Assembly: GCF_035084215.1 (NCBI RefSeq)
Contig: NC_090334.1
Span: 73,966,001-74,030,000 of the forward strand
Length of the DNA: 64,000 nt
Source of the DNA: Heptranchias perlo
Lineage: Eukaryota
Reading direction: 5' to 3'
Part shown: piece after piece, positions 1,831 through 6,934 of the stretch
Layout of the letters: the number at the start of each line of letters is the position of its first letter
How positions within the stretch are numbered: position 1 is the stretch's first letter
Notes under the pieces: generated by a model
What the model was told of the DNA's origin: nothing
The model's database searches: none
The model's input: only the letters and a program-made list of their open reading frames with translations
Position numbers and translations under genes: made by a program

Positions 1831-3983
1831 AGACACACGCCAAATAAAATAATTTATAAAAAATATAATTAGTAGGGATGATTCTCTGCATGCAAATAAT
1901 GACTGTGGCGGGGGAAACGATACTTAGGAAATGTGTGACAATATATATTAATATTATTCACACAAAAGAAATGCTGTGTATCTATTATTTCTTGTGCTAA
2001 TTCCTTATACTGGAAGCGATATTTTCAAGTTTTAAAAGCAAGGATGATAATGCAGTGAGGTTTACTACCAGTGTTCTGCCTGTCAGTCCATTTACTGCAC
2101 ATTGTTCATGTTCCCTAGATGAAAAAAAAAGCTTCAGTATTCTCAGAGAAATCTTTTAATTTTTTTTCTTTCCATCTAGGCAGTTGACTGACAAAGAAAC
2201 CAATTAAATTGAACGTCCCTACAGGGAATTTTGCTTTGCACCAATTGGGGAGCATTGAAGGACAATTACAACCTCAGTAAAATGCAAGTGCACATTATTC
2301 AAGGCAATCATAACCTTACAGTAGCACAGTTTAAAATTAGATTAGGCTGCAACAGTCTGCAACTCCAAGATGGGTGTTATTATGGTACAGTATATAAAAA
2401 TTATAATTTATAGTGGCTGAAGTATATTTGAAAGAGAATAGGCACTACTGGAACTCCTCTTAAAATTAAACAATTACGAAGAATGATTAACTTTAACACC
2501 TATTGGTTTATACGAGTGCTGATGGGATTAAATCAGGAGAACTGGTGCAGGGGAGATGCTGAGACAATATTGAAGGAGCTCCATTATTATAGGTATGATC
2601 ATTAACCCACAATGTTGCAGTGTTTGCCACGATACTGCATGTTTAGCTCAACCTGCCATTTCTTTTCTGCTGAACCTCCAACTAAGATCAGCGTTCATTA
2701 TTCAAACTAATCAAATCAACAAAAATATAATCTTTACTGTTAACTTTATCCAAACGGGAAAAGAGATAATGAAAGCAAATCTCATTGTTAAAGCACGAAC
2801 CAAATGTTCTCCTGAAGCAGATCATTTTTTAAAAATAGACACTACTCAAGAGATATTCTAGATTAATCTTTTTTAATTAGTTTAATATAAAAAAGACTGA
2901 GAGGCATAATGCATTAGATCATCCTTTCAACCCTAGGAGAGACTTAAAAGACTAATGGGATTAATATCTTCTATCTGTTGGCTGTAAGGTTTCTGCATAC
3001 ATGAGTTTGCAGTCAATCTAGTTCCTTTTGGATCCCAGTGTGCAGCATAAAGTTGTCCAGCATTGACTATCTTATTCAGAGAGGTTCCACGCAATGTGGG
3101 AAAGCTTTACTTTATTGGAAAAAACAAAAAGGAGGACCGAGGCCCATGGTGTAAGCATCAACAAGATTAAAAAGGGCAAAAAAGATGGAGTAAGTCAGGA
3201 AGTAGCAATCAGTTGACAACAAATGGAAATTAAAAGCATGAAGATTGAGAAGGAAGGGAAAAAAAGCTTTGGAAGTTAGAGATGAGAAAGCGATTGTCAA
3301 TCAGATGGCAGGTTGTATCCAAGAGTGTGTGAGGTATTAGAAGAGCCTCCATAAATGAATCATAGAATCATAGAAAGGTTACAGCACGGAAGGAGGCCAT
3401 TCGGCCCATCGAGTCCACTCCAGCTCCATGGAGGAGCAATCCAGCTAGTCCCACTCTCCCGCCCTATCCCCGTAGCCCTGCAAATTTTTCCTTTCAAGTA
3501 CTTATCCAGTTCCCTTTTGAAGGCCATGATTAAATCTGCCTTGACCACCCCCTCAGGCAGTGCATTCCAGATCCGAACCACTCGATGAGTAAAAAGGTTT
3601 TTCCTCATGTCACCTTTGGTACTTTTACCAATCACCTTAAAGCTATGTCCTCTGGTTCTTCATCCTTCTGCCAATGGGAACAGTTTCTCTCTATCTACTC
3701 TGTCTAGACCCTTCATGATTTTGAATACCTCTATCAAATCGCCTCTCAACCGTCTCTGCTCCAGGGAGAACAACCCCAGCTTCTCCAGTCTATCCACGTA
3801 ACTAAAGTCCCTTATCCTTGGAATCATTCTAGTAAATCTCTTCCGCATCCTTTCGAAGGCCTTCACATCTTTCCTGAAGTGCAGTGCCAGAACTGGACAC
3901 AATACTCCAGTTGTGGCCGAACCAGTGTTTTATAAAGGTTCATCATGACTTCCATACTTTTGTACTCTATGCCTCTATTTATA

Positions 3984-4207
3984 AATTGTAAACAATTTTA
4001 CAACACCAAGTTATAGTCCAGCAATTTTATTTTAAATTCACAAGCTTTCGGAGGCTACCTCCTTCCTCAGGTGAACGACATCGTTCACCTGAGGAAGGAG
4101 GTAGCCTCCGAAAGCTTGTGAATTTAAAATAAAATTGCTGGACTATAACTTGGTGTTGTAAAATTGTTTACAATTGTCAACCCCAGTCCATCACCGGCAT
4201 CTCCACA
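3984..4207. mobile_element. Fold-back mini element derived from a Penelope-like pseudo-LTR, inserted in CR1
   Basis: Perfect inverted arms 3984-4078 / 4081-4175; flanking direct repeat TCTATTTATAAA at 3974-3985 and 4208-4219; arm clearly similar to the Penelope 3' end at 9856-9945. Confidence 0.85.
4084..4122 (+). ncRNA. Minimal type I hammerhead ribozyme motif (mirror copy on - strand at 4037-4075)
   Basis: TTCAC-CTGAGGA-A-GGAG-gtagc-CTCC-GAAA-GCTT-GTGAA: CUGANGA and GAAA cores, stem I TTCAC/GTGAA, stem II GGAG/CTCC, palindromic AAGCTT replacing stem III. Confidence 0.75.
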
Positions 4208-6934
4208 TCTATTTATAAAGCCCAGGATCCCGTATGCTTTTTTAAACCGCTTTCTCAACCTGCCCTGCCACGTTCAACGATTTGGGCACATATATCCACA
4301 GATCTCTCTGTTCATGTATCCCTTTAGAGTTGTGCCCTCTAGTTTATATTGCCTCTCCTCATTCTTCCTACTGAAATGTATCACTATGCATTTTTCTGCA
4401 TTAAATTTCATCTGCCATGCGCCTGCCTATGCCACCAGCCTGTCTATGTCCTCCTGAAATCTATTACGATCCTCCTCACTGTTCACTAACCTTCCAAGTT
4501 TTGTGTCATCTGCAAATTTTGAAATTGTGCCCTGTACACCCAAGTCCAAGTCATTAATATATATCAAGAAAAGCAGTGGTCCCAGTACCGACCCTTGGGG
4601 AACACCACTGTACACCTCCCTCCAGTCCGAAAAACAACCGGTCACCACTACTCTCTGTTTCCTGTCACTTAGCCAATTCTGTATCCATGTTGCTACTGCC
4701 CCCTTTATTTCATAGGCTGCAATCTTGATGACAAGCTGACCATGCGGCACTTTATCAAATGCCTTTTGAAAGTCCATATACACATCAACTTCATTGCCCT
4801 CATCTACCCTCTTTGTGACCTCATCAAAAAACTCTATCAGGTTAATTAAACATAATTTGCCTTTATCAAATCCATGCTGGCTTTCCCTAATCAATTCACA
4901 CTCGTCCAAGTGACTGTTAATTCTGTCCCGGATTATTGTTTCTAAAAGTTTCTCCACGACTGAGATTAAACTGACTGGCCTATAGTTGCTGGGTTTATCC
5001 TTACACCTTTGTTCAAAAAAGGGTGTAACATTTGCAATTCTCCAGTGCTCTGGCACCACCCCCGTATCTACGGCTGTTTAGAAGATTATGGCCAGTACCT
5101 CCACAATTTGCACCCTTACTTCCCTCAGCAACCTAGGATGCATCCCATCTGGACCGGGTGACTTATCTACTTTAAGTACAGCTAGCTTTTCTAGTACCTC
5201 TTCTTTATCAATTTTTAGCCCATCCAGTATCTCAACTATATCTTCCTTTACTGAGACTGTGGCAGCATCTTCTTTCTTGGTAAAGACAGATGCAACATAC
5301 TCATTTAGTACCTCGGCCATCCCCTCTGCCTCCATGAGTAGATCTCCTATATGATCCCTAATCGCACCCCCCCCCCCATACTATCTGCTACTGTTTACAT
5401 GCCTGTAGAAGACTTTTGGATTCCCTTTGATGTTGGCCGCCAGTCTATTCTCATTCTCTCTCTTTGCCCCTCTTATTTCCTTTTTCACTTCCCCTCTGAA
5501 CTTTCTATATTCTGCCTGGTTCTCACTTGTGTTATCAACCTGTCATATGCCCCTTTTTTCCATTTCATCTTACTCACTATCTCTTTTGTCATCCAGGGAG
5601 CTTCGGCTTTAGTTGCTCTACTTTTCTGCCTCGTGGGAATGTGCCTAGACTGTACCCGATCCATCTCTTTAAAGGCCGCCCATTGTTCAATTATAGTTTT
5701 GCCCGCCAACCTTTGATTCCAATTTACCCGGGCTAGATCTGTTCTCATCCCATTGAAATTGGCCCTCCTCCAATTGAGTATTTTTAATTTAAAGTGGCCC
5801 ATGTCCTTTTCCATAGCTATTCTAAACCTTATGCTGCTATAATTGCTGCTCTCTAAATGCTCCCCCATTGACACTTGCGTCACTTGGCCTGCCTCATTCC
5901 CCAGAACCAGGTCCAGCAATGCCTCCTTCCTCGTTGGGTCGGAAACGCACTGGTTAAGAAAGATATTCTGAACACATTTCAAAAATTCCTCCCCCTCTGT
6001 GCCCCTTGTATTATTATTGTTATCCCAGACTTTATTAGGATAGTTAAAGTCCCCAGTTATCACTACTCTATAGTTTTTGCACCTCTATGTAATTTCCCTG
6101 CAAATTTGCTTCTCTATATCCTTCCCACTAGTTGGTGGTCTATAGAATACATCCAGTAGTGTAATGGCACCTCTTTTATTTCTTAACTCTAACCAAATAG
6201 ATTCTGTCCTTGACCCCTCCAGGACATCCTCTCTCTCCAGTACTGCAATATTCTCCTTAATCAATACTGCCACCCCTACTCCTTTCTTTCCTTCCCTATC
6301 TTTCCTGAACAGCTTGTATCCAGGAATATTTAGTACCCAATCCTGCCCTTTTTTGAGCCAGGTCTCCGTTATTGCCACGACATCATATTCCCATGTGGCT
6401 ATTTGCGCCTGCAGCTCACCAACACTTTGTGCGTTTACACACATGCACTGCAAACCAGTCTTAGATTTTCTTGTACTCTCTCTTAGTCTGATCCCACCTA
6501 ATACTGCATTATTTCTTATTCTAGTGCTATCTTTCTCTCCCGATTCTTTGTGCCCCTTGTTTCTCCTTTCCAATGCTACATCCTGGTGCCCATCCCCCTG
6601 CCAAATTAGTTTAACCCCCACTCCCTCCCCACAGCACTAGTGAACCTCCACGTGAGGACATTGGTCCCAGCTCCGTTGAGGTGCAACCCGTCCGGCTTGT
6701 ACAGATCCCACCTTCCCCAGAACTGGTCCCAATGCCCCAGAAATCTAAAGCCCCCCCTCCTGCACCATCTCTTCAGCCACGCGTTCATCTGCACTATGAG
6801 AAAGAAATATCCTAGCTTGAGGTCAATGCTTGCAAGTGACAGTTCTGTAGCTAAAGATGTTTCTGAATGTCAAAACGTATACAACCAGGAATCAACGCTT
6901 TTATACTTTACTTTCTTTGTGGGCCTGTATTTTG

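Follow-up and report, generated by a model that had tools for sequence, protein, structure and literature searches.

The integration products of Penelope-like elements (PLEs) show a recurrent but complex organisation. In Adineta, the inverted pLTRs are shorter than the direct ones, palindromes are found at the inverted junctions, a 31-bp tail is present at one end, and the insertions are flanked by target-site duplications (TSDs) of 8-10 bp (PMC3846280). The same general layout was described by Craig 2021 (PMC8557442), and both studies report a tail of 30-40 nt. The latter study ascribed the tail to endonuclease resolution, and it still calls undefined the route by which PLEs come to have inverted ends with a one-sided tail. 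Pairs of hammerhead ribozymes on opposite strands, 100-700 bp apart, have been ascribed to truncated PLEs (PMC4209133).

Biochemical work on a PLE protein of the anole is also relevant. In that study (PMC11167929), the protein, a predicted dimer, cuts and extends both DNA strands, prefers AT-rich DNA and starts synthesis at two sites within the RNA, one at either end of the tail. The start sites showed no strand preference there, and the in vitro work ends before second-strand joining. The main start of the element PAc is placed there 111-118 nt past the start codon and the ribozyme cut 26 nt past it, i.e., the start lies 85-92 nt past the cut; in our reading, this start would be the distal of the two sites.

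We analysed a 64-kb window of the genome of the shark Heptranchias perlo (contig NC_090334.1, positions 73,966,001 to 74,030,000), in which a preliminary description had reported a perfect 192-bp palindrome. The insert is 222 nt long, hairpin-shaped and protein-free, with no ORF within it. Its two arms (3984-4078 and 4081-4175) are reverse complements at 95 of 95 positions; the term 'perfect' thus applies to the arms but not strictly to the whole, as the centre (4079-4080) is a non-palindromic CA, which makes the structure a 192-nt inverted repeat with a 2-nt spacer. Among inverted repeats elsewhere in the window that are exact and have a loop of at most 10 nt, the longest reaches 10 nt, and block shuffles gave 9-10 nt in 10 of 10 cases.

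The layout begins with the left copy of the TSD (3974..3985), made of host sequence, and the inverted, 5'-truncated and tail-less 3' end of a PLE pLTR (3984..4078, minus strand), the outer end of which aligns with the 3' end of a sister copy at 9946. The 2-nt centre of the head-to-head junction (4079..4080) is followed by a direct, 5'-truncated pLTR 3' end (4081..4175, plus strand), by a PLE 'tail' of 34 nt, 32 of them unambiguous, that belongs to the direct copy only (4176..4209, plus strand), and by the right copy of the TSD (4208..4219). The previously described 12-nt direct repeats at 3974-3985 and 4208-4219 are exact copies and represent duplicated host sequence. The left repeat shares its last 2 nt with the left arm and the right repeat its first 2 nt with the tail, so that the true duplication is 8-12 nt long. 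Uninterrupted CR1 copies hold the 12-nt sequence once (in sequencing run X1, loose ends occur at 3985 in 106 contigs and at 4208 in 152 contigs). Neither the inverted arm nor the sister copy at its 9946 end has the tail, which is covered by contigs in all four sequencing runs examined. This one-sided tail, a key feature of the insert, had been left unnamed in the preliminary description.

The order TSD, inverted tail-less end, palindromic junction, direct end, tail and TSD is the published layout of endonuclease-bearing PLE insertions. The insert has a pLTR 3' end, a head-to-head inverted and 5'-truncated copy, a one-ended tail of 30-40 nt and a short TSD in AT-rich DNA. Besides this layout, the sequence directly shows that 8-12 nt of an AT-rich CR1 site are duplicated, that hammerheads are present and that each outer junction has a 2-nt overlap. 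We are highly confident that the insert is a PLE insertion stump, and the earlier proposal that Penelope mobilisation gave rise to a protein-free product with a TSD inside a CR1 agrees with this layout. An artefact of the assembly or the library could be invoked here because arm identity is perfect, because in a small sample of contig pieces (the 32 listed of 58,722) none crosses the centre or the junctions of the insert, and because fold-back artefacts are reported for both short and long reads (PMC10908179, PMC12870357). However, an exact 12-nt host duplication, a one-sided 34-nt tail and a natural arm end are not expected of an artefact, and the same CR1 reading frame carries on in the left and right flanks, making this explanation extremely unlikely.

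The host is a CR1-type LINE with remnants of endonuclease and reverse transcriptase (RT) domains (Pfam PF03372, PF14529 and PF00078), located on the minus strand at 3360..6636, with approximate outer limits. When the sequence flanking the insert on either side is translated, the interruption falls in the C-terminal part of its ORF2. A second, 5'-truncated PLE is present at 8850..9946 (plus strand), with the C-terminal part of its ORF, a 3' UTR and a tail-less end. Its ORF shares 92% identity with the C-terminal part of an RT-bearing Heptranchias perlo protein, and Pfam assigned no family to the portion in the window; it is labelled GIY-YIG on the strength of its motifs, as we interpret them, and of a single weak homolog that carries PF01541. 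The sister copy also harbours a hammerhead (9854-9892, plus strand), in which the first pair of helix I is a C-A mismatch. The likeness previously noted between the arm and the 3' end of this element at 9856-9945 is real (85.7% over 91 nt, 9856-9946) but does not make it the source of the insert. We rejected 8850-9946 as the parent, because identity is only 86% and both the tail and the inverted copy are absent; judged by its sequence, this element is a sister family.

Both arms carry a minimal type I hammerhead, on the plus strand at 4084..4122 and on the minus strand at 4037..4075, the latter being the strand of the ALKBH1 pre-mRNA. The CUGAGGA core is found at 4089 (plus) and 4070 (minus); helix I consists of five Watson-Crick pairs and one G-U pair, helix II of 5 bp and helix III of AGCU. 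In the plus copy, helix I (4084-4088/4118-4122) is followed by the core (4089-4095), an unpaired A4096, helix II (4097-4101/4105-4109), GAAA (4110-4113) and helix III (4113-4116), and cleavage is predicted after U4117. Both thus display the conserved core, the unpaired base before helix II, the G10.1-C11.1 pair, a palindromic helix III and a helix I of 4-5 bp that characterise minimal type I hammerheads.

A hammerhead descriptor retrieved only these two sites in the 64 kb (0.01 hits per shuffle in 100 shuffles), and the top ranks in a covariance-model search went to the two arms (27.3 bits, with an approximate E of 9e-6), which bears out the earlier description of a core with stems in each arm. 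The model was trained on seven PLE-associated hammerheads from metagenome loci. The underlying PLE protein search yielded 80 loci, mostly distant and none equivalent to the short shark stump; a minimal hammerhead was found in 16 of the 80, and an inverted repeat also in 16. Training left out locus L044, which is close to the family of the window, the near-duplicate members L006, L050 and L052, and five hammerhead loci with a 4-nt helix III spacer. The covariance-model check proposed earlier thus succeeded with this custom PLE model but not with the Rfam families, none of which reached gathering score; over 3500-10500, no hammerhead family was among the seven Rfam hits with E values up to 10. 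Rfam hits named EF0605 were dismissed as chance matches to the hairpin. Pair counting on the four aligned ends was uninformative and revealed no covariation.

As the two copies lie head to head, the antisense arm is transcribed first in any read-through RNA. The predicted pairing probabilities of the ribozyme are 0.70-0.99 in a lone arm vs <1e-16 in read-through RNA, and their location on opposite strands precludes dimerisation in cis. The 95-bp hairpin is thus predicted to silence both ribozymes in such an RNA, and it could be an ADAR substrate. The proposal that the insert functions as a ribozyme in either direction is therefore not supported, each copy being transcribed after its own complement, whereas the suggested 95-bp dsRNA that masks the ribozyme in ALKBH1 pre-mRNA agrees with the predicted fold, the pre-mRNA location being probable.

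Regarding this location, an initial motif scan of the window for ALKBH1 exons yielded nothing; exon 1 was located by reading the sequence (13715..13846, minus strand) and then confirmed by matches to a PDB ALKBH1 entry (E of 7.9e-7) and to shark and ray ALKBH1 proteins. The latter match exon 1 only, with no further ALKBH1 exons in the window, and Pfam, searched with 146 of the window's 164 short ORFs, produced a single hit, at chance level. The insert lies ~9.5 kb downstream of exon 1, probably inside intron 1. A T>C excess at the family level in one run (X5), putatively RNA by our guess as none of the 24 runs listed is recorded as RNA, is a weak hint of A-to-I editing of the arm family. This T>C excess, and a location that is probably intronic and on the strand that is transcribed, might suggest that the hairpin has been retained as a regulatory element of ALKBH1, acting by editing, small RNA or conditional cleavage. 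We regard this as barely conceivable, since the insert is one copy of a very abundant, lineage-expanded family in a dead CR1, ~9.5 kb from the exon, and the arm has low depth in two relatives.

This organism has a very high abundance of the arm family, with a summed X1 depth of 1.0-3.7 million across the arm bins (not a copy number), of the same order as that of the CR1 flanks. Arm depth is low in related organisms (runs X10 and X13), and an exact 21-nt arm pattern had no match in viral and metagenome contigs. Within the family, positions such as 4126 and 4138 are polymorphic. The abundance of the family, and the presence of a tail recognised by PLE proteins, are consistent with a non-autonomous fold-back mini-element that would be transcribed and re-inserted as a unit, in the manner of MITEs, SINEs or retrozymes. 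Several observations make this very unlikely, however. X1 depth is 157,471 at 4075, vs 577,840 at 4081 and 808,607 at 4083; as the first value is about a quarter of the second, most family members lack the CA centre, which was possibly templated by the parent in plus orientation, as the same asymmetry suggests. Arm-to-arm joints were found at four other centres (4053-4106, 4020-4139, 4032-4130 and 4010-4085, among the 15 listed out of 258 joints), with offsets from mirror symmetry of 0, 0, 3 and 64 nt. These joints come from short-read contigs, to which library fold-backs could contribute; the joint fillers listed were 12 out of 239, and the loose ends 24 out of 776. The head-to-tail tandem units, each with a hammerhead, that define non-LTR retrozymes are absent, no head-to-tail direct repeat of the unit being found in the insert, and the 95-bp duplex would bury both the ribozyme and the proximal start site. 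The initial view of a 'mini-retroelement' in its own right finds no support in these data or in the published PLE layout. The fold-back rather looks like a by-product formed anew at each insertion than a self-copying unit. One joint centre sits on the native helix II hairpin.

With neither an ORF nor a direct-repeat partner, the product would not move further by itself; most likely, this is a dead-end insertion of the ordinary sort, and it is probably inert. Its age, initially given as very young, can be stated only in relative terms. The 95/95 arm identity is no proof of youth, because it caps divergence at 3.1%, which allows ~22 million generations at the epaulette-shark rate; better support comes from the match of the insert to the majority letter of the family at all listed sites except one and from the scarcity of the arm in two relatives.

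How both arms came to be inserted can be approached from their ends. Short inverted repeats in AT-rich sequence can seed replication template switching or break repair, and the palindrome might thus have arisen later, from a plain truncated insertion. Yet the two arms fit exactly between the TSD copies, and the inverted one terminates where the element has its own tail-less end, implying that both arms date from the insertion, and this scenario is most improbable. The direct sister copy stops at the same tail-less point, two X5 contigs join this end to another flank, and in one X5 contig the same CR1 site contains an inverted, tail-less end that belongs to the sister family. The tail end lies 90-92 nt past the predicted ribozyme cut. 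Taking identity and mechanism together, we rate at somewhat better than even the reading of the insert as a one-off insertion of a PLE end made by dual-nick priming. The GIY-YIG endonuclease of the element would make staggered cuts in both strands, leaving 3' overhangs. Priming from the bottom-strand end would take place at the distal start site, where the tail ends (4207-4209), and priming from the top-strand end at the proximal site (4173-4175); both cDNAs would stop after ~95-130 nt, and their 3' ends would be joined at a short CGA/TCG complementarity. In a more specific and quite tentative version, on the doubtful side, a single PLE dimer would prime both nicks on one RNA, using the two start sites with their spacing of 34 nt, the proximal cDNA would be displaced by the distal one, and both would meet the same stop before being joined. 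Such twin priming of the same end would produce the one-sided tail, the identical arms and symmetric centres in one step. Among the publications listed and judged by their titles or the start of their abstracts, none puts forward this case.

Self-priming was put forward, and preferred, for PLE inverted junctions by Arkhipova 2013 (PMC3846280). The cDNA or the antisense template would fold back at a short inverted repeat and copy itself, and the endonuclease would trim the product at the tail boundary before joining to the other flank. This process accounts for the identical arms. The centre of the insert and three of the four others are symmetric or nearly so, one of them on the helix II hairpin, which is a direct prediction of self-priming and not of two independent cDNAs. 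On the other hand, a 2-nt loop closed by 3 bp would be a poor snap-back seed, one joint is asymmetric by 64 nt, and an extra cut is needed exactly at the tail-less site where the direct sister copy ends, a site that matches an RT start in the anole study. We thus consider self-priming possible but less than probable.

The value of this locus is that of a stripped-down record of PLE integration. Within 250 nt, such stumps hold the centre, the outer junction on either side and an empty site that is known, and a genome-wide count could therefore separate dual-nick priming from self-priming. If twin priming is correct, the many short insertions of this shark lineage, in each of which the empty site and the two junctions can be read, would suffice to test PLE integration by genomics alone, and they would also form a built-in population of ADAR-edited perfect dsRNA hairpins. 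If the editing hint is true, the stumps would in addition readily supply shark introns with perfect dsRNA.

In L1 twin priming, both target nicks prime cDNA synthesis, yielding a 5' inversion within one TSD in which the inverted part is upstream sequence. In the shark insert, by contrast, the inverted part repeats the very 3' end that the direct part also contains. Non-LTR retrozymes (bioRxiv 10.64898/2026.07.22.740005) are similarly protein-free, PLE-derived and equipped with type I hammerheads, but they form head-to-tail tandems that allow dimer cleavage, which the head-to-head shark insert cannot support. The minimal hammerheads of metazoan PLEs (PMC4209133) share with it the full core, the unpaired base between positions 9 and 10.1, the G10.1-C11.1 pair, a palindromic helix III and a short helix I. 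Helix II has 5 bp in the insert vs 7-8 bp in Schistosoma families, and the starts of the two cores are 19 nt apart in one perfect duplex instead of ~100-700 bp (PMC4209133). The Poseidon element PAc of Anolis carolinensis (PMC11167929) resembles the insert in its pLTR hammerhead, its tail bounded by two sites and its AT-rich target; the tail ends 85-92 nt past the ribozyme cut in PAc and 90-92 nt past it in the shark. The PAc ORF begins inside the hammerhead, whereas the insert has no such frame. The Adineta vaga elements Pen2, Pen2a and Pen3a (PMC3846280) likewise have a head-to-head inverted, 5'-truncated copy, a one-ended tail, an AT-rich target and nesting in another retroelement, with TSDs of 8-10 bp vs 8-12 in the shark. 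Unlike them, the insert has no ORF or second direct pLTR between its arms and totals 222 nt, and its palindrome is 95 bp long as against junction palindromes of 18 and 38 bp. The shark insert thus represents a known kind of PLE insertion, here reduced to a stump.

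The insert at 3984-4209, a hairpin-shaped stump of a Penelope-like element (PLE), has two arms, one inverted (3984-4078) and one direct (4081-4175), that are exact reverse complements over 95 nt around a CA spacer, bearing out the exactly complementary arms claimed in the preliminary description. The longest other exact hairpin in the window (loop of at most 10 nt) measures 10 nt, and each of 10 shuffles reaches 9-10 nt. The second arm continues on its right into a 34-nt tail without mirror image (4176-4209), found on this side only; after the tail comes a stretch (4208-4219) that repeats 3974-3985 exactly over 12 nt. 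The flanks belong to a single minus-strand CR1 ORF2, whose reading frame picks up again beyond the insert, confirming the direct repeat inside a CR1 noted earlier. Contigs of the same organism (DNA run X1) reveal empty sites, 106 departing from the reference at 3985 into the right flank and 152 coming in at 4208 from the left flank, and the repeat is thus duplicated host sequence. Since its inner 2 nt also fit the element at each junction, the duplication has a length of 8-12 nt, and up to 4 nt may belong to the insert in addition to its 222 nt.

The arm had been matched to the 3' end of the element at 9856-9945. The similarity stands (85.7% over 91 nt), but this element (8850-9946, plus strand) is a sister family of the arm's PLE. 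Its ORF shares 92% identity with the C-terminal portion of a Heptranchias perlo reverse transcriptase-bearing protein and has relatives in other sharks, and its end coincides with the end point of the inverted arm. It is 5'-truncated, with an open 239-codon frame and a tail-less end; it has neither tail nor inverted copy, and no target duplication of at least 8 nt was found around it. The family to which the arm itself belongs is abundant, X1 contig depths (sums, not copy numbers) being 1.0-3.7 million in the arm bins versus 1.3-9.3 million in the main CR1 flank bins. In runs of related organisms, arm-bin depths are 0-7,456 (X10, 55% of the run) and 6,763-80,652 (X13). Contigs with at least 90% similarity differ at five listed sites within the insert; only at 4138, where 60% of them read T, does the window carry the minority letter. 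The depth contrast and the majority letters support a lineage-expanded, fairly recent family. The insert had been called very young; arm identity by itself (0 differences in 95) does not show this, as it allows 3.1% divergence, which a rate of 7e-10 per site per generation (PMC10587355) turns into ~22 million generations. A metagenome contig (L044) carries a hammerhead end very like that of the shark family (1-100, minus strand) and a PLE reverse transcriptase fragment (710-1045) on the other strand; this end resembles an inverted 5' copy of the kind seen here. Long PLE-ORF-like stretches also occur in several annotated shark host proteins (NOXP20-like, CYP2C31-like, septin 5a, XRCC5, PPP1R12A-like isoforms), reflecting either exonisation or annotation carry-over.

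Each arm contains a full hammerhead core, as proposed, with an unpaired A before helix II, G10.1-C11.1, a 5-bp helix II, a helix I of five pairs plus one G-U, and a helix III cut down to AGCU. In the window, a hammerhead descriptor picked out the two arm sites and nothing else (100 shuffles gave 0.01 hits each on average); of 80 metagenome PLE loci, 16 contained a site. The Rfam search gave the arm hammerheads no score. A covariance model trained on 7 of these 16 loci, with rough E-values, placed both arms at the top (27.3 bits), followed in third place by the 9854 copy (19.2 bits) and then by a match scoring 12.7. The hammerhead of the 8850-9946 element has a C-A mismatch adjoining the cut site. 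The arm hammerheads share features listed for minimal metazoan PLE hammerheads, for which no monomer cleavage and low dimer cleavage are described (PMC4209133), and both ribozymes of the insert are predicted to be silent.

ALKBH1 exon 1 lies at 13715-13846 on the minus strand, and four shark or ray ALKBH1 proteins matched no second exon in the window, which would place the insert in intron 1. Head to head with this exon, ~200 nt away, is a probable SLIRP exon 1 (about 14045-14115, plus strand), labelled from a weak PDB match (E 0.92), a GT donor and synteny. Minus-strand RNA of the insert is predicted to fold as a full duplex (-184 kcal/mol, z -28). With the arms placed head to head, transcription in either direction produces an antisense copy ahead of the ribozyme; the predicted pairing probability of helices I and II falls from 0.70-0.99 in a lone arm to <1e-16 in read-through or nascent RNA. 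The suggested dsRNA masking the ribozyme in ALKBH1 pre-mRNA therefore agrees with prediction, but a working ribozyme in either transcription direction does not. In X5, a run of the same sample, plus-strand T>C changes reach 3.2% of depth at 4125 (19 contigs) and 8.1% at 4130 (34 contigs), against 0.03% (5 contigs) and 0.04% (2 contigs) in X1, i.e. ~100-fold and ~200-fold more, in the antisense arm. On the opposite strand these changes read as A>G, at adenines that follow a U. A-to-I editing of the arm family is a tentative explanation that we hold at less than even: X5 is taken as RNA by guess, the signal is family-wide rather than specific to this locus, 3987 T>A, which editing would not cause, is likewise up ~2.7-fold in X5, and A>G stays below 2% throughout the ribozyme strand. 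Genomic variants in a small number of expressed loci could also produce the signal. The insert itself is probably inert.

Elsewhere in the window, a CpG island at about 59050-59400 (minus strand) has an ATG and, four codons further on, a GT donor, and is probably SNW1 exon 1 by synteny; a 42-nt two-copy repeat (59214-59298) lies just upstream. Two CR1 copies (20927-23183 and 43110-45402), ~97% identical, inverted and ~20 kb apart, are a possible long-range dsRNA or recombination pair. Arrays include a purine-rich one with a 34-nt period (9-918) and one with a 24-nt period (62377-62906, 22 copies at 97%).

Among the short-read contig matches listed (15 of the 258 joints, 12 of the 239 fillers), a left arm is joined to a right arm at four or more other centres: 4053-4106, on the helix II hairpin (two contigs), and 4020-4139, both mirror-symmetric (offset 0 nt), 4032-4130 (3 nt off symmetry), all in X1, and 4010-4085 in X5 (64 nt off). 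Symmetric fold-backs are, however, also known library products (PMC10908179, PMC12870357). X1 depth is far lower at 4075 (157,471) than at 4081 (577,840), so most family members do not cross this centre; this suggests that the CA centre is parental sequence in the tail-bearing orientation. The tail-less end is joined to another flank in two X5 contigs, and one X5 contig has a sister-family tail-less end, in inverted orientation, at the matching position (3986) in a different CR1 copy. PLEs may thus have targeted this AT-rich site in CR1 more than once.

The locus is of use as a test case for how PLEs integrate. According to Frangieh et al. (2024), a PLE protein cuts AT-rich DNA on both strands and extends each, and reverse transcription starts at two internal RNA sites bounding the tail, the main start lying, by their numbers, 85-92 nt beyond the ribozyme cut (PMC11167929). 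In this insert, the distance from the predicted cut (after U4117) is 90-92 nt to the end of the tail and 56-58 nt to that of the inverted arm. Such a duplication implies that each fragment has a 3' overhang and hence that either could prime. The bottom-strand end would prime at the tail end and the top-strand end at the tail-less site, the primer fitting its template over 2 nt in each case, and the two cDNAs would then be joined at CGA/TCG. Such dual-nick priming is the simplest reading of this one locus, and we lean modestly towards it. Self-priming, by which Arkhipova et al. (2013) interpreted head-to-head palindromes (PMC3846280), followed by endonuclease trimming, appears less likely, though both readings accord with the sequence of a single locus; the surplus of symmetric centres favours it, or else a variant of dual-nick priming in which a protein dimer primes both nicks on one RNA from start sites 34 nt apart.

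The structure observed is real and was correctly described at the outset, and it is of a kind already known, namely a PLE insertion stump with inverted end, tail and target duplication. Craig et al. (2021) describe a 5'-truncated copy lying inverted next to the 5' end, together with a tail of 30-40 bp that is often confined to one end (PMC8557442). In the insertions of Arkhipova et al. (2013), the inverted terminal repeats (pLTRs) are shorter than the direct copies, palindromes occur where the inverted copy joins, and the tail measures 31 bp and the duplications 8-10 bp (PMC3846280). The insert is this published layout minus its middle. Very short PLE insertions are on record, with a de novo median of 128 bp in Chlamydomonas (PMC9977147), and Cervera and De la Pena report opposite-strand hammerhead pairs 100-700 bp apart and relate dispersed hammerhead motifs to truncated PLEs (PMC4209133). 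Retrozymes, by contrast, are described as a head-to-tail class (bioRxiv 10.64898/2026.07.22.740005), from which this head-to-head insert differs.
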